Shown: positions 18,966 through 28,002 of the stretch, in pieces
Layout: every line of letters begins with the position of its first letter
Numbering within the stretch: position 1 is the stretch's first letter
Source: an uncultured Nitrospinaceae bacterium
GTDB taxonomy: Bacteria; Nitrospinota; Nitrospinia; Nitrospinales; Nitrospinaceae
DNA length: 50,185 nucleotides
Assembly: GCA_965372625.1 (NCBI GenBank)
Contig: CBDVDB010000001.1
Coordinates: forward strand, 1-50,185
Direction: 5' to 3'
Translations under genes and position numbers: made by a program
The notes under the pieces: model-generated
What the model saw: only the letters and a program-made list of their open reading frames with translations
The model's database searches: none
Told to the model about the DNA's origin: nothing

Positions 18966-19286
18966 GTGGATACCTTCATTAGTGTTTTGCATATTGTGGT
19001 TGCATTGTTTCTGATTATGGTGATTTTGTTACAGGCTGGAAAGGGCGCCGCCATGGGGGCCTCTTTAGGTTCCGCCGGCAGCCAGGCCATGTTCGGAAGC
19101 AGCGGATCGGGTAATTTCCTCACCAAGCTCACCACCGCCGCGGCGATTATTTTTATGGTCACCTCTTTAACTTTGGCCATCCTTTCCACCCATGAGGACA
19201 AGAGTTCGGTCATTGATGAAGTGGAAAGCACAACCGAGCAGATTCCCAGCCCCCTCGCAAACGATGACGAGCTACCCTTAGAATAA
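18966..19286 (+). CDS. secG: Preprotein translocase subunit SecG
   Basis: 106 aa with a GTG start. It has two TM helices with the Gly-rich loop LLQAGKGAAMGASLGSAGSQAMFGS typical of SecG. The tpiA-secG-tRNA-Leu arrangement supports the call. Confidence 0.85.
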   Translation: MDTFISVLHIVVALFLIMVILLQAGKGAAMGASLGSAGSQAMFGSSGSGNFLTKLTTAAAIIFMVTSLTLAILSTHEDKSSVIDEVESTTEQIPSPLANDDELPLE

Positions 19287-19299
19287 TTTTCTGGATATA

Positions 19300-19384
19300 G
19301 CCGATGTGGTGGAACTGGTAGACACGTGCGCTTGAGGGGCGTATGGGGCGACCCGTGGGAGTTCGAATCTCCCCATCGGCACCA
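19300..19384 (+). tRNA. tRNA-Leu (anticodon GAG), class II with long variable arm, CCA encoded
   Basis: I folded the cloverleaf by hand. The acceptor stem is GCCGATG/CATCGGC and the D stem is GTG/CAC. The anticodon stem is TGCGC/GCGTA with loop TTGAGGG. The variable arm is 13 nt and the T arm is GGGAG-TTCGAAT-CTCCC. The discriminator is A, followed by CCA. E. coli has the same secG-leuU(GAG) arrangement. Confidence 0.93.
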
Positions 19385-19410
19385 ACTTCCTCCGCAGGTT
19401 TTCATCCTAC

Positions 19411-19767
19411 ATGCAGGCGACCAGCTTAGGCGATATTTTTTCCCATCCCAGCTTTCTTACTATTTTAGCCACCATTTTGATCGTTATCGCCAATATCATC
19501 ATTGGCGTTGGTCTGCTTCCCAAGGATGCCCGTAAAAAGCGTTATAAACTCCACCGAGCCGTTTTCGGGGCGGCCCTGGTTTCCCTGGGAGTTTTTCTGG
19601 CCGTTACCCACCGCTTGATGGGCAATTCCCCTTTTAATTTCGTGGTCTTGGCTTACTTTATGATCGCCATTCCCTTGAGCCGGAGATGGAACGTCACCCT
19701 GCATGCCATCATCGCCTCCGTAGGACTGGTCCTGCTGATGGGGATCGCCACTTTCAGTGTTTTATAG
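19411..19767 (+). CDS. Hypothetical small polytopic membrane protein (about 4 TM helices)
   Basis: 118 aa, almost entirely hydrophobic segments separated by short basic loops ([18 protein letters not shown]). I recognised no family. Confidence 0.55.
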
Positions 19768-19806
19768 GCGGCAACGATCCCATTGCCTAAACTCCCGCGA
19801 ATGTGC

Positions 19807-19832
19807 TGTAATGTGTTTTGTAAACTCACCTT
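19807..19832 (+). promoter_or_regulatory. Shared upstream motif, copy A (TGTAATGTGTT..AAACTCACCTT)
   Basis: It lies 19 nt upstream of the flavoprotein ATG. It shares TGTAAT, TGTGTT and an exact 11-mer AAACTCACCTT with copy B upstream of the Rieske gene. Confidence 0.35.
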
Positions 19833-19850: not shown

Positions 19851-21185
19851 ATGAATGAATACGATGTCCTGGTCATTGGCGGCGGAACCGCAGGTGTTGC
19901 GGCGGCTCTTTCCGCTGCCCGGCAGGAAGCCCGGGTCGGCCTCATCGAGTCAAGCCGTCCGGGAGGGCATTCCCTGTTCAAGGGACACATACCCCTGCAA
20001 GTCCTCCGCGACCCAAGTGAAACATCAGATGCAATAATTTCCCTGGAAAACCTGGCTCAAAGGGCGGAGGAACAGGCAGAAAAGGCTTCCCGGCAAGTGG
20101 TTGAGGATTTGCAGAACGCCGGGGTGGAGCGGATTCCGGGTGAGGGTTCGTTAGCGGGTAACCGGCAAGTGATGGTGCTTGAGGAAGGGAATCAGACTCC
20201 TCTTAAAGCCGGGAAGATCATTATCGCAACCGGTTCTCTTACCAAGCCGGTGAATACGATTCCCTTTGATGATCAAAGCATATTTCCGTTGGACCGGTTT
20301 CTGGATTGGCAGAAAACCCCCAACTCATTGCTGATCGTGGGCGGCGATAAAGCCGGGTTGGAAGCGGCGCAAATTTTCAGTCTGCTCGGCGCCCGGGTTT
20401 TTCTGGTGGACGAGCATAGCCGGTTGATTCACGATCAAGATCCCGAGTTGATTACGGCTTTGGAAGCAGGATTCAAAAAACAAAAAATCAAAGTATTGCT
20501 CGGCAAAAAAATCATTTCAATTTTCAAGGATAAGGAAAGCATTGATGTCACTCTGGACGGGGGGGTTAAGTTTTCCACCGAAAGGATTCTTGTGTCGGGG
20601 GCGCGTTTGGGAAATACGGCGAACCTGGGATTGGACTCTTTGAATGTTGAAGTGGGACCCGGCCGCGAAATCTGGGTCAATGAACATATGGAGACATCGC
20701 TGGCAGGAGTGTTCGCCGCGGGCAGTGTGACCGGGCGGTCCCGTTCCCTTCAAATTTCAGAAGAAGAAGGCCGGGTGGCGGGAATCAATGCATCGGGAGG
20801 GCATCAACCCCTGCAACGAGAGCATATTTCTTTTTGCCTGCAAACCCAACCGAAGATTGCGAGTATCGGCTGCATCGTTGCCAATGCCCATTACCAGGGA
20901 TTTCGCGCGGTGGAAGGGCGTTACGATTCTACAGAAACCGGGAATTCCACCGGCAGTGATGGGGAGTTCTGCAGGATCATCGCGGATCGTGAATCGAAAC
21001 AGATCATCGGCGCTCAAGTTTCAGGAGCGCAGGCTTTTGAGTGCATCGCTCTGGTGCAGTCGAACATCAAAAAGGGCGTTTCGGTTAAAGAATTGGTGCA
21101 AAATAATGAAGATCAATCACCCCATTTGGAACCCATCCTTAAGGCGGCTAAAAAGTGTGCGCGGGCCTTGTCTGGTCGGCGTTAA
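19851..21185 (+). CDS. FAD-dependent pyridine nucleotide-disulfide oxidoreductase homologue (dihydrolipoamide dehydrogenase-like) lacking the redox-active Cys pair
   Basis: 444 aa. It has the FAD Rossmann motif DVLVIGGGTAGVAAAL and a second Rossmann region LLIVGGDKAGLE...VFLVDE. A dimerisation-domain-like C-terminus is present. At the position of GGxCLNxGCIPSK it reads GGHSLFKGHIPLQ. Confidence 0.8.
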   Translation: MNEYDVLVIGGGTAGVAAALSAARQEARVGLIESSRPGGHSLFKGHIPLQVLRDPSETSDAIISLENLAQRAEEQAEKASRQVVEDLQNAGVERIPGEGSLAGNRQVMVLEEGNQTPLKAGKIIIATGSLTKPVNTIPFDDQSIFPLDRFLDWQKTPNSLLIVGGDKAGLEAAQIFSLLGARVFLVDEHSRLIHDQDPELITALEAGFKKQKIKVLLGKKIISIFKDKESIDVTLDGGVKFSTERILVSGARLGNTANLGLDSLNVEVGPGREIWVNEHMETSLAGVFAAGSVTGRSRSLQISEEEGRVAGINASGGHQPLQREHISFCLQTQPKIASIGCIVANAHYQGFRAVEGRYDSTETGNSTGSDGEFCRIIADRESKQIIGAQVSGAQAFECIALVQSNIKKGVSVKELVQNNEDQSPHLEPILKAAKKCARALSGRR

Positions 21186-21329: not shown

Positions 21330-21890
21330 ATGAGTGATGTAAAAGGGGAAGCCAAACCGGCACCCGCCCAACCCAAAGCCACGGGCAAAAAAGACGTGGT
21401 TCAAGATACGATTTGGTCACGGCGCGACTTTTTTTCGCTTGCCGGCTGGGCCGGTTTTATGGCCTCGTTGGGGTTGTCGTCTCTGTATTTTTTGAGACTA
21501 TTGTTTCCGCGAGTTCTGTTTGAACCCTCCCCTAAATTCAAAGCCGGTAATCCGGGAGACTATACCGTGGGTGAAGTCAGCTCCAAATGGGTCAGCGAAC
21601 AGCGGGTATGGATCATTCGGGATGAGGAGAAGCTTTATGCGATTCTGGCGCGTTGCACGCATTTGGGATGCACGCCGTTGTGGTTGAAGACCGAGGGGAA
21701 GTACAAATGTCCCTGTCATGGCAGCGGTTTTACCATGGAAGGCATCAATTTCGAAGGCCCGGCACCGCGTCCGCTGGAACGTTTGAAAGTGGAGCTCGGA
21801 CCGGACGGCCAGATCGTTATCGATAAAAGCAAAAAATTCCTTTTTGAAAGGGGAGAATGGGGCAAGCCCGGCTCGTTTCTCAGGGTTTGA
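21330..21890 (+). CDS. petC: Rieske [2Fe-2S] subunit of a cytochrome b6f/bc-type complex
   Basis: 186 aa. It has the twin-arginine motif SRRDFFSLAG followed by a TM anchor. The cluster-binding boxes CTHLGCTP and CPCHGSGF are present. Confidence 0.9.
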   Translation: MSDVKGEAKPAPAQPKATGKKDVVQDTIWSRRDFFSLAGWAGFMASLGLSSLYFLRLLFPRVLFEPSPKFKAGNPGDYTVGEVSSKWVSEQRVWIIRDEEKLYAILARCTHLGCTPLWLKTEGKYKCPCHGSGFTMEGINFEGPAPRPLERLKVELGPDGQIVIDKSKKFLFERGEWGKPGSFLRV

Positions 21891-21938
21891 CGTCTTTATC
21901 CCAAGTTTAATTTAGAGAAGTTCACGGAGGTTTCAGTT

Positions 21939-22769
21939 TTGGCCAACAAACCCAAAATTCCAAATATAGCCGAAGTCATGGCGTCCATCAAAAGCGGCAA
22001 AATCTGGAAAGATATTGCCAAGCAGGTGACGGAATCCCAGATATGGACCTCTTCGTTTCGGCACGGATACGCAGACACACCCCGCAACCGGGTTCTTCAG
22101 ATTGCCAGTAACGTCTGGTTGCATTTACATCCGGTAAAAATTCACCGCCACGCGTTGCGGATCAAGTTCACCTGGTGCATGGGCGGAATTACGTTTCTAT
22201 TGTTTTTGTCCACGGTGGTCACCGGTGTGATTCTGATGTTCTATTACCGGCCGGTAGGGGAGTACGCCTACTTCGATATGAAATACCTTCAGTATGACGT
22301 ACCGTTCGGCATGTTGATGAGGAACATGCACCGGTGGGCCGCGCATGCCATGGTGATCACCGTATGGCTTCATATGCTCCGCGTGTTTTTGACGGGATCC
22401 TATAAACCGCCGCGGGAATTCAACTGGGTGATCGGCGTGTTTCTGGTGACCTTTACGTTGCTGCTGAGTTTTACCGGTTACCTGCTTCCCTGGGACCAAC
22501 TGTCCATGTGGGCGGTAACCGTGGGAACCAATATGGCCCGCGGGACTCCCTTTTTAGGGCATGAGGGGCCCTTTCAGGAATTTGTGCCGCTCATCAGCCC
22601 CAGATATGATGCCCGGTCCGTGCTTTTGGGAGGAAGTCTGGTCGGACCTCCGGCCTTGCTGCGGTTTTATGTGTTGCATTGCATTTTTATTCCGTTGGTC
22701 GCCGGGGCTCTGATGATCGTCCATTTCTGGCGTATCAGAAAAGACGGTGGGATATCCGGCCCGCTTTAA
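21939..22769 (+). CDS. petB: Cytochrome b6-type subunit (split cytochrome b, N-terminal four-helix part)
   Basis: 276 aa. The TTG start is supported by GGAGG 8 nt upstream. It is collinear with cyt b6: [10 protein letters not shown] (the b6 Cys35 position), HRWAAHAMV...[31 protein letters not shown] and [11 protein letters not shown]...[15 protein letters not shown] at the C-terminus. Confidence 0.9.
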
Positions 22770-22819
22770 TTTCGTCGTTTCCGGATTATCCGGTTTTTCG
22801 ATAAGGGATCGTTTCGATT

Positions 22820-23575
22820 ATGGCTACCGCCGCTAAAAAGAAGACCGTTGAAGATTTACCCGAAAAGGTCCATGTCTGGCCTTATCTGGTACGCTTGGAG
22901 CTTTTGTGTACGATCATTGTGATCATTGCCTTGACGGTATGGTCCATCGTGATCGACGCGCCTCTGGAGGAAGCGGCCAATCCCACCAAAACCCCCAATC
23001 CCTCGAAAGCCCCCTGGTACTTCCTGGGCCTGCAGGACATCCTGGTTTATTTCGATCCCTGGTTCGCCGGTGTGGTCGCCCCGGTATTGATTATCGTGGG
23101 GCTGATGATGATTCCCTATCTCGACGTCAATCCCAAGGGCAATGGATACTACACTTATACCGAGCGAAAATTCGCCATTTGGGTTTATTCTTTCGGGTTT
23201 ATCGTTTTGTGGATCTCCCTCATCATCATGGGCGTGTTCCTGCGCGGACCGGGATGGAATCTGTTCATGCCCTGGCAATATTGGGACCCCCACAAGGTGG
23301 TGGCGTTGGTCAACGTCGATTTACCTTATGCTTTCGGTTTTCGTACTTACCTTGGCGCCAGTTTATTTGGCGGAGCTGTGATATTGGGCTATTTCGCTAT
23401 AGGGACAGCCGGGTATTTTTTCATGGAACGAAAAGCCATAAAAAATGTGGGTTTTCTCAGAATGCTCATCAAGATTATACTGCTCCTGATCATGCTGGGT
23501 ATAGTTATTAAAATCGTTCTCCGGCTGGCATTTAATATCAAATATGTCTGGGTCACCCCCTGGTTTAATATCTGA
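22820..23575 (+). CDS. petD: Subunit IV-like (cytochrome b C-terminal part) with extra C-terminal TM helices
   Basis: 251 aa. It is collinear with PetD: EAANPTKTPNPSKAPWYFLGLQDIL, where the Qo-site PEWY box reads APWY. Several additional hydrophobic helices follow, beyond the roughly 160 aa of canonical subunit IV. Confidence 0.8.
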   Translation: MATAAKKKTVEDLPEKVHVWPYLVRLELLCTIIVIIALTVWSIVIDAPLEEAANPTKTPNPSKAPWYFLGLQDILVYFDPWFAGVVAPVLIIVGLMMIPYLDVNPKGNGYYTYTERKFAIWVYSFGFIVLWISLIIMGVFLRGPGWNLFMPWQYWDPHKVVALVNVDLPYAFGFRTYLGASLFGGAVILGYFAIGTAGYFFMERKAIKNVGFLRMLIKIILLLIMLGIVIKIVLRLAFNIKYVWVTPWFNI

Positions 23576-23589
23576 CTATTTAAAATCAC

Positions 23590-26283
23590 ATGACAGACGA
23601 ACCACAAAAAAGAGAAGGGGAATTTGACGAGACGACCTCGTACAGTTTCCTGTTTTTCCTGATGTCCGGGGCATTGCTGTTTGTCACCCTGTGGTCGTTC
23701 TGGGATGATGAATATAGCCGGCGAGGCTTCAAGGAATTCCAGGATGTCTATTACAAGGAACAGTTCGCGCGGGCAGAGCGCAATTTCAAGGAAGTCAGCG
23801 AAAAAATCAACGTCAAAGAGCAGGAAATCCTGGCCTCCATCGCCACCGAAGAACAGACGATGGAGGGCAGTGACGAATACCAGGTATTAGCTGAAGTCGC
23901 ATGGGAAGCTCAAATCCATCTGGATGAGGTGACCGAGGAGCAGAAATTCGCCAAGAGCCATCTGGATGAGTATTATTACTATTACAAAAAAGCCATGCAC
24001 GAAGGCAAGAACTTCGAGGTCCAGTTAGCCAAGGTTCATGATACGGAAAAGGAAATCGGGGAATATGATCCGATCATTGCGGAAGCGGCTCGCCATAGAG
24101 ATGAGGCGGAGGAGAAATTACTCAAATTCAAGGCGAAAAAAGAAAATCTTGAAAAAGAGCTTGGCCTGCTGGTCAATGACAAGGTGGTTCTCCAGGGAAC
24201 GATGGATTTTTATAAACCCTATCCCTTTTTCTGGAAACCTGCTGAAATTTTTCAAACCGTAATCCCTTCCTACGGTAAAAACAATTTCCAGGAAATCACC
24301 TATAAAGTCGACCGGTGTCATACCTGTCACCTCTCCTTTGACGACCCTTATTATGAAAAGTTTGAGCATCCGCTCAAAAGCCATCCCAATCCTGAAATAT
24401 TAATTACAAAACACGATCCCCTGGTAACCGGTTGCACCTGGTGTCACAAGGGGCAGGGGACGGCGACCGCCCCCGCGGAGCACGCACATGGTTCCCACCA
24501 TGAAATGGACCAATCGACGGGCATTAACGAACCTCTTCTGCTCGGTAACCTGGTGCAGGCCAGTTGCCACAACTGCCACGCGCCTCAGGTGGAATTAGAA
24601 GGGGCGCCTATACTCTCCCAGGGTAAAAAAATATTTTTAAAACTGGGTTGCCATGGTTGCCACATGGTAGACGGTTATCAGGCAGAAAAGAAAGTAGGGC
24701 CCAGCCTGTTGCGTATTGCTTCCAAAGTAGATCCGAGTTGGCTGGTCCGCTGGGTCAAAAAACCGAAAAATTATCTCCCCAAAACGCGCATGCCGTTCTT
24801 TAGCTTGAGCGATGAGCATACGCTGGCTATTTCCGCCTATCTCTGGGATGTTTCGGAAAAAGATTACCAGGTGGCGGAAAAATATAATGGCGGCGATGCG
24901 GCTAAGGGGAAAAAATTGTATGACAGCGTGGGCTGCCAGGCCTGCCACAAAGTTAACGGAGACGGTGAGTTGTTCGGGCCCGACCTGACCCGCATCGGCA
25001 ACAAGGTTACTCCGGATTGGCTGGTCAGCTGGATTCAAAATGCGGATGATTACAATCCGAACAGCATCATGCCGGATTTGAGGTTGACGTATAAAGATGC
25101 GTCTGATATCACCGCTTACCTGTTGCAATTTGACAAAAGACAGCCTCTGACAGGTGTCGAAGACCAACTCAATAATCCCGAGCTGATCAAGCTGGGCAAA
25201 ATCCTGATCAGGCGCCAGGGTTGTTTCGCCTGTCACGACATCAAGGGTATGGAAAAAGTGGGCCGGATTGCTCCCGAGCTTTCCGCATTCGGCAACAAGC
25301 AGACCCGCGAACTGGAATTTGGCGATGCGCATATTCCTCATACCTGGGAATCCTGGACTCGCACCAAGTTGAAAAATCCTGATGCGTACCGTACGGAGCG
25401 GATTCTGGACAAGATGCCCAATTTCGACCTGAAGCCGGATGAAGTGGAAGCGCTTCTGGTTCTGCTTAAAGGGCTTAATGGCGTTAAAATGCCGGCCCAA
25501 TATCAGAAAAATTACTCAGAGAAAGAATTAATCATTGAAAAAGGCCGCCGGTTGATCACCCGCTTCAATTGCCGCGGATGTCATGTCGTGGAACGAACCG
25601 GGGGAGATATCCAGGAGTTTCTTTCCTCTAAAAAACAATATCCGCCGCCCCTGGAAATGGGGAATTATCATGTGGGAGAACGTTTAAAGGGTTCGTGGCT
25701 GTTTTCTTTCCTGAAACAACCCACTCCGGTAAGAACCTGGATGAAAGTCCGCATGCCTACCTTTTCTTTAACCGATAAAGAAGTCCGGGATTTAACGGCT
25801 TATTTTGAAGCCCTGTCGCCGAATGAGATCAGGTATGAACCGGACGTCCATATTAAAAAGAGCAAGGATAGCATTCAGACCGGGGTTAAAATCGTCAATT
25901 ACATGGACTGTGGAAAATGTCATGACGATGGCGAAAAAGGCATTGATTTCTCCATTGCCGCCCAGCGCTTGAAGCAGGACTGGATACCCAAATGGATGAA
26001 AGATACCCGGGATTTGATTCCCTGGACCGGGATGCCCAACCACTGGACTAAAAAAGAGGATAAATACGTCATACCCTCCAAATTCAGTGATCTGAAAGAG
26101 TTTGAAGAGGGGAATATCGATTCGCACATCAAACACATCGGAGATTTTGTCCTTTCCTACAATACCGCCGAAGGTATTGATTTTGATGTCTCTCTGGGTG
26201 AAAGCGGCGGGGGTGAAGATGAGGGTGACGATGAAAGCGAAGCCGGGGACGATGAAGAAGAGGAAGAAGACGAAGATGAGTAA
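23590..26283 (+). CDS. Membrane-anchored octahaem c-type cytochrome (3-haem cluster plus five tandem class-I cytochrome c modules)
   Basis: 897 aa with one N-terminal TM helix and about 200 aa of charged, heptad-like sequence. There are eight CxxCH motifs: CHTCH, CTWCH, CHNCH, CHGCH, CQACH, CFACH, CRGCH and CGKCH. The last five each have a downstream Met-Pro motif (RMPFF, IMPDL, KMPNF, RMPTF, GMPNH). The C-terminus is GEDEGDDESEAGDDEEEEEDEDE. Confidence 0.85.
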   Translation: MTDEPQKREGEFDETTSYSFLFFLMSGALLFVTLWSFWDDEYSRRGFKEFQDVYYKEQFARAERNFKEVSEKINVKEQEILASIATEEQTMEGSDEYQVLAEVAWEAQIHLDEVTEEQKFAKSHLDEYYYYYKKAMHEGKNFEVQLAKVHDTEKEIGEYDPIIAEAARHRDEAEEKLLKFKAKKENLEKELGLLVNDKVVLQGTMDFYKPYPFFWKPAEIFQTVIPSYGKNNFQEITYKVDRCHTCHLSFDDPYYEKFEHPLKSHPNPEILITKHDPLVTGCTWCHKGQGTATAPAEHAHGSHHEMDQSTGINEPLLLGNLVQASCHNCHAPQVELEGAPILSQGKKIFLKLGCHGCHMVDGYQAEKKVGPSLLRIASKVDPSWLVRWVKKPKNYLPKTRMPFFSLSDEHTLAISAYLWDVSEKDYQVAEKYNGGDAAKGKKLYDSVGCQACHKVNGDGELFGPDLTRIGNKVTPDWLVSWIQNADDYNPNSIMPDLRLTYKDASDITAYLLQFDKRQPLTGVEDQLNNPELIKLGKILIRRQGCFACHDIKGMEKVGRIAPELSAFGNKQTRELEFGDAHIPHTWESWTRTKLKNPDAYRTERILDKMPNFDLKPDEVEALLVLLKGLNGVKMPAQYQKNYSEKELIIEKGRRLITRFNCRGCHVVERTGGDIQEFLSSKKQYPPPLEMGNYHVGERLKGSWLFSFLKQPTPVRTWMKVRMPTFSLTDKEVRDLTAYFEALSPNEIRYEPDVHIKKSKDSIQTGVKIVNYMDCGKCHDDGEKGIDFSIAAQRLKQDWIPKWMKDTRDLIPWTGMPNHWTKKEDKYVIPSKFSDLKEFEEGNIDSHIKHIGDFVLSYNTAEGIDFDVSLGESGGGEDEGDDESEAGDDEEEEEDEDE

Positions 26284-26534: not shown

Positions 26535-27029
26535 GTGTCTCTGTTCATCATCACATTTTTTGCTTTCTTTATTGGAATCATCCTGATCCTGTTTTTAAAA
26601 AATACCTCTCCGCCTGCTCCGCAAGAACAAATTCACTTCGAGAATCCCGACGATAAACCGATTTACCTGATAGACTCTGAAGCCTTTAAGGAAAAGTGTC
26701 TGGAATTTCTGGGTAAGTTTAATCTTGAATACAAACACTCGATCTGGGCCAACGAGCAGGAACTTGAAATTGATATGCTGGACGAAACCCCCGTCGTCGG
26801 CGGCAAATACCTGGCCTTATGCATTTTTGACCCGCCGCACCGCCTGGTTGATCTCTTCAAGGTGAAGGGTTTTATTGAAACCGTGAAAGGGGAGGGAGCC
26901 GCTCGGGGTATTTTGATTACCACGGGTTATTTTTCCGAGGATGCCCAGAGAGTGATTGAAGAGGACCCGGTGGAGCTGGTCAACGTGGTTTCATTTCTGG
27001 ATTATTTGAAAAAATTTGACATATACTGA
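26535..27029 (+). CDS. Membrane-anchored Mrr-like (restriction endonuclease fold, Mrr_cat-type) domain protein with degenerate catalytic motif
   Basis: 164 aa with a GTG start and an N-terminal TM helix (LFIITFFAFFIGIILILFL). It is collinear with the Mrr catalytic-domain pattern: FKEKCLEFLGKFNLEY, ELEIDMLD, ARGILITTGYFSEDAQRVIEE and VELVNVVSFLDYL. The expected (Q/E)xK box reads LCI. The family call is from memory of the profile only. Confidence 0.5.
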   Translation: MSLFIITFFAFFIGIILILFLKNTSPPAPQEQIHFENPDDKPIYLIDSEAFKEKCLEFLGKFNLEYKHSIWANEQELEIDMLDETPVVGGKYLALCIFDPPHRLVDLFKVKGFIETVKGEGAARGILITTGYFSEDAQRVIEEDPVELVNVVSFLDYLKKFDIY

Positions 27030-27117
27030 ACCTTCCCCGTAGCGCCCCTGTATTTCAAGGATTATTCAAGGCCTCCCTTATTTTCGGTTCCCACCTTTGT
27101 GTTATACTTACAAACCT

Positions 27118-28002
27118 ATGAAAATTAAGGCAATATTAGAAAAGGTGCACCCCTCGTTTTCGTTTGAGTTTTTTCCACCCAAGAACCGCGAGGGGTTTGA
27201 CACATTATTCACCACGATTGAGCAGTTGCAGTCTTGCCAGCCGTCTTATGTTTCGGTTACCTTTGGCGCTGGCGGCAGTACCCGCACCCAAACGATTGAC
27301 CTGGTTGGAAAAATTAAAAATGAAATCGGGTTGGAGTCGATGGCTCACCTGACCTGCGTGGGCAGCGATAAAGAAGAGCTACGTTCTATTCTGGACATCC
27401 TGCAGGACAGAGGCATTCAAAATGTACTGGCTTTACGGGGAGATCCTCCGCAGGGTCAGGATCAATTCGTGAAGCCGGAGAACGGGTTTGCTTATGCCAA
27501 CGAACTGGTGGAATTTATCCGGAAGAATTACGATTTCTGTATCGGAGTGGCGGGATATCCGGAAGGCCATGTGGAATGCCCCGATAAAACTGCCGATTTG
27601 GAAAATTTAAAACGCAAAGTAGACGCGGGGGCGGATTTTATCGTGACCCAGTTGTTTTTCGACAACCGCTTCTATTTTGATTTTGTTGACCGGGCGCGAA
27701 ACCTCGGAATTCAAGTGCCGATTATTCCCGGGATCATGCCTATTTTGAATTTCAAGCAGACCCAGCGGTTTACTAAAATGTGCGGAGCCACCATTCCTTC
27801 CCTGCTTTTGGGAAGGCTTGAAGCCGCTCAGGATGACCCGGAAACGGTTCGGAAAATAGGCGTTGATCATGCCGTACTCCAATGTGAATTATTGCTTCGG
27901 GAAGGAGCGCCGGGTATCCACTTTTACACGCTGAACCGTTCAAACGCCACATTAAAAATACTGGAAACATTGAGATGCCGGGCTGACCAGACTGGCGATT
28001 AA
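27118..28002 (+). CDS. metF: 5,10-methylenetetrahydrofolate reductase
   Basis: Motifs are FSFEFFPPK, SVTFGAGGSTR, HLTCVG, LALRGDPP, VAGYPEGH and DFIVTQLFFD. I prefer ATG 27118 (MKIKAILEK) over the non-ATG start at 27097 in the track. Confidence 0.9.
   Translation: MKIKAILEKVHPSFSFEFFPPKNREGFDTLFTTIEQLQSCQPSYVSVTFGAGGSTRTQTIDLVGKIKNEIGLESMAHLTCVGSDKEELRSILDILQDRGIQNVLALRGDPPQGQDQFVKPENGFAYANELVEFIRKNYDFCIGVAGYPEGHVECPDKTADLENLKRKVDAGADFIVTQLFFDNRFYFDFVDRARNLGIQVPIIPGIMPILNFKQTQRFTKMCGATIPSLLLGRLEAAQDDPETVRKIGVDHAVLQCELLLREGAPGIHFYTLNRSNATLKILETLRCRADQTGD

Follow-up and report, generated by a model that had tools for sequence, protein, structure and literature searches.

The stretch of DNA analysed here, referred to as the window, comprises 50,185 nucleotides (nt) of contig CBDVDB010000001.1 (assembly GCA_965372625.1) from an uncultured Nitrospinaceae bacterium, a member of the Nitrospinales, which are the main nitrite oxidizers of the ocean. 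Directly upstream of an operon for a Rieske/cytochrome b (cyt b) complex, it carries a gene for a flavoprotein that resembles dihydrolipoamide dehydrogenase (Lpd), under which name automatic annotation (JGI names) lists it, and that we call LPDL, for Lpd-like. A model's earlier reading of the window from its letters, hereafter the original prediction, had described the LPDL product as a relative of the disulfide reductases that has lost both of its redox-active cysteines. The features of this gene and of its surroundings are collected in Table 1.

Table 1. The LPDL gene, its sequence landmarks and the neighbouring features, with positions in the window.
Feature	Position (nt)	Strand	Basis or remark
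LPDL, Lpd-like flavoprotein gene (P0001, 444 amino acids)	19851..21185	+	Open reading frame, fold prediction, structure matches
FAD-binding GxGxxG, reading GGGTAG	19878..19895	+	Residues 10-15; ribose-binding acid E33 at 19947-19949
Remnant of the redox-disulfide helix, GGHSLFKGHIPLQ	19962..20000	+	S41/H46/Q50 replace Cys/Cys/Lys; alignment, family counts
Second dinucleotide motif, reading GGDKAG	20340..20357	+	D166 in place of the second Gly; D187-E188 follow at 20409-20414
Lys-rich NAD-domain segment, EAGFKKQKIKVLLGKKIISIFKD...GGVKF	20463..20573	+	Residues 205-241; conservation gain, charge
GD motif turned GS, AAGSVTG	20715..20735	+	S292; Ser in all family, Asp in all outgroup sequences
C341...H347 (CIVANAH)	20871..20891	+	Interface domain; family-specific trio with C436 (21156-21158)
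Remnant of the His-Glu dyad, DQSPHLE	21111..21131	+	Q422 for the catalytic His, E427 kept; alignment
orf118 (P0121), 118-amino-acid four-helix membrane protein	19411..19767	+	Directly upstream of LPDL in 19/19 loci
LPDL promoter-like site, TTGCCT-N18 (ending TGTGC)-TGTAAT	19783..19812	+	38 nt before the ATG; consensus match only
Rieske/cyt b operon promoter, TTGACT-N17 (TGn)-TAAAAA	21214..21242	+	28 nt past the LPDL stop, 87 nt before the Rieske ATG
Rieske gene	21330-21890	+	Pfam; operon 21330..26283
cyt b6-like gene	21939-22769	+	Pfam; same operon
Subunit IV-like gene	22820-23575	+	Pfam; same operon
Multihaem cytochrome c gene (897 amino acids)	23590-26283	+	Pfam; last operon gene
secG	18966-19286	+
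tRNA-Leu(GAG)	19300-19384	+
tRNA-Leu/orf118 junction	19385-19410		26 nt in the window
Spurious open reading frame, 158 amino acids	18929-19405	-	Antisense over secG and tRNA-Leu(GAG)
Mrr-like gene, membrane-anchored product	26535-27029	+	Trails the multihaem gene
metF	27097-28002	+	Trails the multihaem gene

The layout proposed in the original prediction, that of a 444-residue class I enzyme, is borne out by the open reading frame, by its domains and by its predicted fold. Pfam recognizes Pyr_redox_2 (E 1.6e-41), Pyr_redox and a C-terminal Pyr_redox_dim domain, all above their cut-offs, and the AF2 model (pLDDT 91.8, pTM 0.90) retrieves Lpd structures as its top Foldseek matches (TMq 0.86-0.88, the best being 6uzi and 2eq6), then STH, a soluble pyridine-nucleotide transhydrogenase, and MerA, with values of 0.81-0.88 overall. 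By its domains and its Lpd/GR-like fold, LPDL belongs to the class I flavoprotein disulfide reductase (FDR) superfamily, and the three motifs named at the outset, GGGTAG, GGDKAG (residues 164-169) and VFLVDE (residues 183-188), all stand where they had been placed. The highest-scoring curated family is dihydrolipoyl dehydrogenase (TIGR01350), which LPDL matches with 226.3 bits against a cut-off of 408.8; the STH model NF003585, the second-best NCBIfam match, gives 207.4 bits (cut-off 465), the MerA model TIGR02053 181 bits (cut-off 454) and the model of LpdA-type quinone reductases, NF005883, 170.9 bits (cut-off 479). LPDL is thus placed inside the superfamily and outside each of these curated families, and is probably a cytoplasmic, dimeric protein of class I FDR fold that would bind FAD.

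A HMMER alignment with the solved Lpd of Thermus thermophilus (2eq6) sets GGHSLFKGHIPLQ of LPDL over GGVCLNVGCIPTK, so that the two redox-active cysteines fall on S41 and H46, the replacement by serine and histidine that had been read from the sequence. Throughout the 112 aligned family sequences on which our residue counts are based, the second cysteine never occurs (0/112), and the first position holds serine in 61 sequences and cysteine in 36; among the nearest outgroup representatives, 103 of 109 have both cysteines and all 109 have the aspartate of the GD motif. The cysteines of LPDL itself lie at positions 329, 341, 374, 398 and 436 only. As none falls in residues 1-328, a relocated N-terminal catalytic cysteine of the Nox/CoADR kind is ruled out, and the FAD and NAD domains hold neither a cysteine pair nor a single catalytic cysteine elsewhere in the active site.

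By alignment, three further losses lengthen the list given in the original prediction, namely the catalytic histidine, a flavin-side lysine and the GD-motif aspartate. The histidine of the HPxxxE motif is Q422 in LPDL and is never histidine at the aligned column in the family, compared with 114 of the 119 sequences that make up our outgroup. The glutamate of the same dyad, found in 117 of the 119, is one of several residues at family position 427 (K45/Q24/E14/R12). The lysine of CIPSK, which faces the flavin and is kept in 115 outgroup sequences, has become Q50, and the GD motif has become GS. LPDL was weighed against three groups of the superfamily and fitted none of them. For group 1 (Lpd, GR, mycothione reductase), both the CxxxxC and the HPxxxE histidine are wanting; for group 2 (MerA and high-Mr TrxR), there is a lone C436 in a predicted helix (residues 424-441) and no CxxxxC; for group 3 (Nox/Npx/CoADR), the required single cysteine of the N-terminal FAD domain is missing. 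Because the entire family lacks the cysteine pair and the catalytic histidine, LPDL cannot be a conventional disulfide reductase, as had been argued. The host genome carries two canonical Lpd-type genes (C53:9422-10783, L001, and C356:1-1347, L002), with GGVCLLRGC and GGDCLHTGC at the disulfide, a GD motif and an HPT-type C-terminal motif. One of these paralogues exceeds the TIGR01350 cut-off, and those of the sister genus are likewise Lpd-type with CxxxxC, so that E3-type chemistry is covered elsewhere in the genome.

LPDL is one member of a discrete family. A profile search of 1.84 billion representatives returned about 30 LPDL clusters, taken at 50% identity, with scores of at least 369 bits; below a gap in the scores, ordinary reductases begin at 332 bits. 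The source names of the relatives recovered in sequence searches are those of Nitrospinota only (Nitrospinaceae, Nitromaritima, Nitrohelix). In a maximum-likelihood tree, 27 family representatives form a single clade on a long stem (SH-aLRT 100), outside Lpd and unjoined to Escherichia coli SthA. The gene is present in 98 of 120 Nitrospinota genomes and in 55 of the 57 of high quality, with all clear members in one order; the apparent absence from one single-scaffold genome (G090) is an artefact of an N-gap, upstream of Rieske, where the C-terminal third of LPDL remains. Measured against two close relatives, dN/dS is 0.20-0.29 for LPDL, 0.12-0.15 for gap and 0.06-0.11 for Rieske, and LPDL is clearly under purifying selection. 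From the monophyly, the score gap and surfaces that have become newly conserved, we read the family as having gained a new function rather than as decaying.

The same scores and tree bear on the possibility that LPDL is a divergent STH-like soluble pyridine-nucleotide transhydrogenase. Consistent with this idea, the STH model is second in rank at 207 bits, none of 52 genomes of the order encodes a protein above the STH cut-off, and deeper members of the LPDL family read GGxC(V/F)HxG, with the first cysteine only, much as E. coli SthA reads GGGCTHWG. A score of 207 bits is nonetheless far under the cut-off of 465, the tree does not join LPDL to SthA, the NAD-site motif is degenerate in the genus of the window and the GD aspartate, which SthA keeps, is lost. 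Moreover, PntB of the membrane transhydrogenase occurs in 50 of 52 genomes of the order. Given this distribution, together with scores and a tree that lend no support, an STH-like role is very unlikely.

We next consider what the family has retained and what it has acquired. At the FAD site, G10 and G15 are invariant and G12 and E33 are conserved at 90% or more, and the GxGxxG segment is conserved on a par with ordinary FDRs (2.82 versus 2.74 bits). Of the elements associated with the second dinucleotide, E171 is kept in 111 of the 112 sequences, R252 in 104 and E188 in 92, together with an ATGS motif, D187 and R191. An acidic pair that closes the second beta-alpha-beta unit, as D187-E188 does here, is the classic NAD(H) signature of Rossmann folds. 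Judged from these residues, the dinucleotide-binding elements of the family appear to be largely retained. Relative to ordinary FDRs, constraint has been lost most at the disulfide helix (-0.74 and -1.08 bits) and has been lost at the His-Glu segment as well. The biggest gain in conservation (+1.24 and +1.53 bits) lies in the Lys-rich segment of the NAD domain, in which K209, K212, K214, K219, K226 and K240 are each conserved in at least 90% of the family and which averages 8.1 lysines and a net charge of +4.0, compared with 5.4 and +1.4 in ordinary FDRs. Constraint has also been gained in residues 346-360 of the interface domain.

A second acquisition is the trio C341, H347 and C436, present in 106, 110 and 108 of the 112 sequences, respectively, and jointly in 101. 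The outgroup has L/M/I, K/R/E and A/V/I/L at the same three positions. The trio may form a metal site, a redox pair or part of the packing of the core. That so specific a set should replace the hydrophobic or charged residues of ordinary FDRs invites the proposal that LPDL retains thiol chemistry, its redox or metal centre having moved to C341 and C436 (and H347), possibly across the dimer interface. We regard this as the least probable of the alternatives. C436 sits within a confidently predicted helix, unlike the flexible tail of MerA or TrxR; several deep family members lack one of the trio cysteines; and the two cysteines occupy positions of a buried type (L/M/I and A/V/I/L), which suggests core packing instead.

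What has been observed, and on which a function for LPDL can be proposed, is the fold, the set of lost residues, conservation throughout the family, the arrangement of the genes and purifying selection. Three Lpd relatives set a precedent: STH, LpdA of Mycobacterium tuberculosis and yeast Irc15p have no functional disulfide, yet they bind FAD, accept electrons from NAD(P)H and pass them on to quinones or artificial acceptors (PMC6296175). The analogy with these proteins and the retained dinucleotide motifs make an NADH-reducible flavoprotein the best reading, and we put at roughly 0.5 the probability that LPDL is a non-thiol FAD oxidoreductase passing electrons from NADH through its flavin to an acceptor that is not a disulfide, with both the donor and the type of acceptor proposed by analogy. 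In the mechanism that we envisage, LPDL would have given up thiol/disulfide chemistry and acquired its new function in the ancestor of one Nitrospinota order. The flavin would be reduced by NADH, in preference to NADPH, and would hand its electrons directly to a quinone or a protein partner, and such a partner might dock on the new Lys-rich surface. With a promoter-like site of its own, LPDL would constitute a genetic unit separate from the downstream complex III operon.

Several observations weigh against a catalytic flavoprotein of this kind. The GD aspartate, present in 119 of 119 outgroup sequences, is serine in 112 of 112 family sequences, and the flavin-side lysine at position 50 is glutamine or arginine in the family. 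The GD aspartate contacts the ribitol of FAD. Its replacement therefore means that flavin binding or flavin geometry in LPDL may be altered. At the NAD site, the second glycine of GxGxxG is aspartate in the genus of the window and variable across the family (position 166 being D53/G29/N14/E7/S5), a change that could weaken or abolish the binding of NAD(P)H. The N. gracilis orthologue has this second GxGxxG intact. None of the 22 family members that were scored reaches a curated family cut-off, and LPDL is the fastest-evolving gene of its block, with 32-67% identity across the order compared with 87-95% for cyt b.

Some of these observations keep alive the reading of LPDL as a pseudoenzyme, in which the fold is kept, FAD is perhaps structural, pyridine nucleotides are no longer turned over and the new surfaces let the protein serve as a scaffold, a sensor or a regulator. 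None of the catalytic elements of the parent family survives: the GD aspartate, Lys50, both cysteines and the His-Glu dyad have all been lost. In addition, the NAD motif is degenerate in the genus of the window, the GD aspartate has become serine throughout the family, and conservation has shifted away from the active site towards residues 205-241 and 346-360 of the surface. Selection on LPDL is also relaxed relative to the neighbouring genes, and Irc15p sets a precedent for paralogues of this sort assuming non-metabolic roles (PMC6296175). Nevertheless, the GxGxxG and E33 of the FAD site, ATGS, E171, R252 and D187/E188 are all conserved at levels usual for active enzymes, deeper lineages have an intact GGGGAG where the genus of the window has GGDKAG, and Irc15p itself remains reducible by NADH (PMC6296175). 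On balance we hold a pseudoenzyme to be unlikely, although the most probable of the alternatives, and retain the NADH-reducible, non-thiol oxidoreductase as the preferred reading.

We then turned to the surroundings of the gene. In all 19 loci that were fetched, which represent four families, the order is gap, tpiA, secG, tRNA-Leu, a variable insert, orf118, LPDL and Rieske, followed by the cyt b6-like, subunit IV-like and multihaem cytochrome c genes, an Mrr-like gene and metF. The junction of LPDL with Rieske is repeated on the short contigs of two deep-branching family members, so that LPDL adjoins Rieske/cyt b genes wherever its neighbourhood was compared, and the gap of 144 nt between LPDL and the Rieske gene is as originally given. 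Across 20 loci from four families, the operon promoter with its extended -10 element recurs with identical spacing in every case, starts 17-34 nt past the LPDL stop codon and is followed by a leader of 59-117 nt. A promoter-like arrangement in front of LPDL recurs in 8 of the 20 (genera g1, g2, g4, g13 and g14). Neither a consensus scan for intrinsic terminators nor a comparison of the 20 loci for a consistent hairpin with a U-run revealed a terminator between LPDL and the Rieske promoter.

The original prediction had also pointed to a sequence motif shared by the regions upstream of LPDL and of Rieske. The likeness itself stands, with one further match at three mismatches in the window where none is expected by chance, but the motif is unconserved as such in relatives. 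Its copies belong to two different sigma70-type promoter regions, the 5' half lying within the LPDL site and the second copy within the Rieske promoter. A common regulatory site was rejected as an explanation, as relatives display two architectures and the 3' half of the motif (AAACTCACCTT) is unconserved and peculiar to the window.

The small protein encoded by orf118 shares the distribution of LPDL among the genomes checked, and both genes are missing from five genomes of other orders, whose reductases are canonical throughout. Its AF2 model (pLDDT 86) consists of four long helices, and its invariant residues are N28, H48, Y82, H98 and S103, of which H48 and H98 stand where helices 2 and 4 begin on the cytoplasmic side. 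Pfam assigns it to no family (the best match, DUF420 at E 0.12, is not significant), and its relatives in the ESM Atlas come from Nitrospinota only. Comparison with solved structures yields generic four-helix bundles only, with Z values usual for helical bundles. Outside its own family, its ESM Atlas neighbours are membrane modules that handle haem, namely DUF4079/cytochrome b561, COX15-CtaA and Cytochrom_C_asm proteins (TM 0.68-0.76). From these neighbours, the small orf118 product may bind haem or a metal, although in a bundle of this length structural neighbours are no more than a lead.

The arrangement of these genes recalls the functional link to the Rieske/cyt b complex that the original prediction had entertained. 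In its most explicit form, LPDL, perhaps together with orf118, would serve the b6f-type Rieske/cyt b/octahaem complex as a redox module on the cytoplasmic face, connecting the b haems or the quinone site with NAD(H) or some other carrier in the cytoplasm. FNR on the chloroplast b6f complex would be an analogue, as would the NAD(P) oxidoreductase subunits that have been proposed for the bc complexes of anammox bacteria. The order and strand of orf118, LPDL and Rieske are invariant in the 19 loci and in the deep members even though LPDL has diverged to approximately 33% identity, insertions fall upstream of orf118 and never within this trio of genes, and the matching distributions of orf118 and LPDL fit such a module. 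With no consistent terminator before the operon and an LPDL stop codon only 17-34 nt from the -35 box, read-through from LPDL into Rieske is possible, and the conserved Lys-rich surface could serve as a docking face.

As it was stated, the link is unsupported. The Rieske operon has a strictly conserved promoter of its own (20/20 loci). Collinearity extends over the whole 13-kb block, with gap, tpiA, secG, tRNA-Leu and metF in it, which makes the adjacency of LPDL and Rieske nonspecific. A subunit of the complex would be encoded wherever the homologous operon occurs, whereas the homologous Rieske/cyt b operons of other orders of the class (G118 and G001) have neither LPDL nor orf118 nearby, and the reductases of these two genomes are all canonical (CxxxxC/GD), with no LPDL elsewhere. 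LPDL furthermore evolves several-fold faster than the subunits of the complex, and a complex prediction for LPDL with orf118 returned a score of 0.00 with the verdict 'no answer', which speaks neither way. The literature gives the same operon for Kuenenia and Methylomirabilis oxyfera without a flavoprotein, and the account of Nitrospina gracilis leaves the Lpd-like neighbour out of complex III in its Table S1 and unmentioned in its text (PMC3578206). From this genomic comparison, we judge a dedicated complex III role for LPDL to be possible but unsupported, and improbable. More doubtful still is the specific proposal that the products of orf118 and LPDL jointly make up a flavoprotein module, restricted to this lineage, that docks on the cytoplasmic side of the Nitrospinales b6f-type Rieske/cyt b/octahaem complex.

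Several further observations were made along the block and in related genomes. The minus-strand reading frame of 158 codons is spurious, and its apparent conservation in relatives is due to the secG and tRNA-Leu genes that it overlaps. The junction between tRNA-Leu and orf118, only 26 nt long in the window, holds inserts of approximately 1-3 kb in many relatives (among them L039, L040, L043 and L046-L049) and is the sole variable place in the collinear 13-kb block, as expected of a tRNA-adjacent insertion site. The Mrr-like gene and metF trail the multihaem gene in every relative examined. To see whether LPDL goes with nitrite oxidation, NxrB/NarH was searched for in five genomes, some bearing LPDL and others lacking it; the matches were alike in all five and lay below the cut-off. 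In the genome of the sister genus (G024; L096), three NxrB/NarH-like matches with equal scores (C1:89158, 888646 and 2180837) would fit the presence of several almost identical nxr copies in nitrite oxidizers.

Lpd relatives that lack the redox cysteines have precedents. By sequence, the LPDL family fails the curated family cut-offs and has its own signature, comprising GS for GD, C341/H347/C436 and a Lys-rich face on the NAD domain. Literature searches for the LPDL gene or for the N. gracilis locus tags found no description. The gene is nonetheless present order-wide, under selection and situated beside the sole complex III operon of the Nitrospinales. The dihydrolipoamide dehydrogenase label is wrong for LPDL, which should be excluded from E3 counts in metabolic reconstructions. 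As a natural relative of the disulfide reductases in which the otherwise invariant GD aspartate is replaced, it bears on the evolution of the flavin site, and as a predicted soluble protein of 444 residues with a confident model it is a tractable target for biochemistry. To our knowledge, uphill electron flow from nitrite to NAD(P)H and ferredoxin in Nitrospinales is still a genome-based hypothesis only. Were a connection of LPDL to complex III true, it would alter the picture of energy conservation in nitrite oxidizers; an orf118-LPDL module, if real, would directly link the NAD(H) pool to complex III or the quinone pool and would represent an unrecognized step of reverse or cyclic electron flow, like FNR on b6f.

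Comparison with known systems places the locus and its flavoprotein among better-characterized relatives. The bc-like operon described for N. gracilis consists of a Rieske gene, a split cytochrome b and an octahaem cytochrome c (Luecker et al. 2013, PMC3578206), and the operon downstream of LPDL in the window has this published structure. In the sister genus (G024), which belongs to the same family, the gene order is identical, with LPDL upstream of the bc-like operon. Compared with dihydrolipoyl dehydrogenase itself (E3, TIGR01350), LPDL has lost CxxxxC, the His-Glu dyad, Lys50 and the GD aspartate. STH/SthA (NF003585; PDB 9n4y) is like LPDL in fold (Foldseek rank 10, TMq 0.84), likewise lacks the second cysteine and the catalytic histidine, and has the GGxCxHxG pattern in common with the deeper LPDL members. 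It differs in keeping the first cysteine, with threonine at the second position, the GD aspartate and an intact GxGxxG, where the LPDL of the window has S41/H46, S292 and GGDKAG, and PntAB already covers transhydrogenation in genomes that bear LPDL.

Irc15p of Saccharomyces cerevisiae is a recent eukaryotic duplicate of LPD1 that binds microtubules. This Lpd paralogue, although devoid of both redox cysteines, forms dimers, contains FAD, can be reduced by NADH and acts as a diaphorase and quinone reductase (PMC6296175). LPDL resembles it in having lost both cysteines and taken on a new function, whereas Irc15p keeps the His-Glu dyad (PMC6296175), and the two have common ancestry only at the level of the superfamily. 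LpdA of M. tuberculosis (Rv3303c; NF005883; PDB 1xdi) has the class I FDR fold and is homologous to LPDL over its full length (1xdi, E 3.9e-25). LpdA has lost part of its disulfide as well as its His-Glu dyad, and it reduces quinones, not disulfides (PMC6296175). The LPDL of the window has gone further, having lost both cysteines, the GD aspartate and Lys50, and its family is a separate Nitrospinota clade in a tree whose sequences did not include LpdA. By analogy, LpdA is the best model for a possible mode of action of LPDL.

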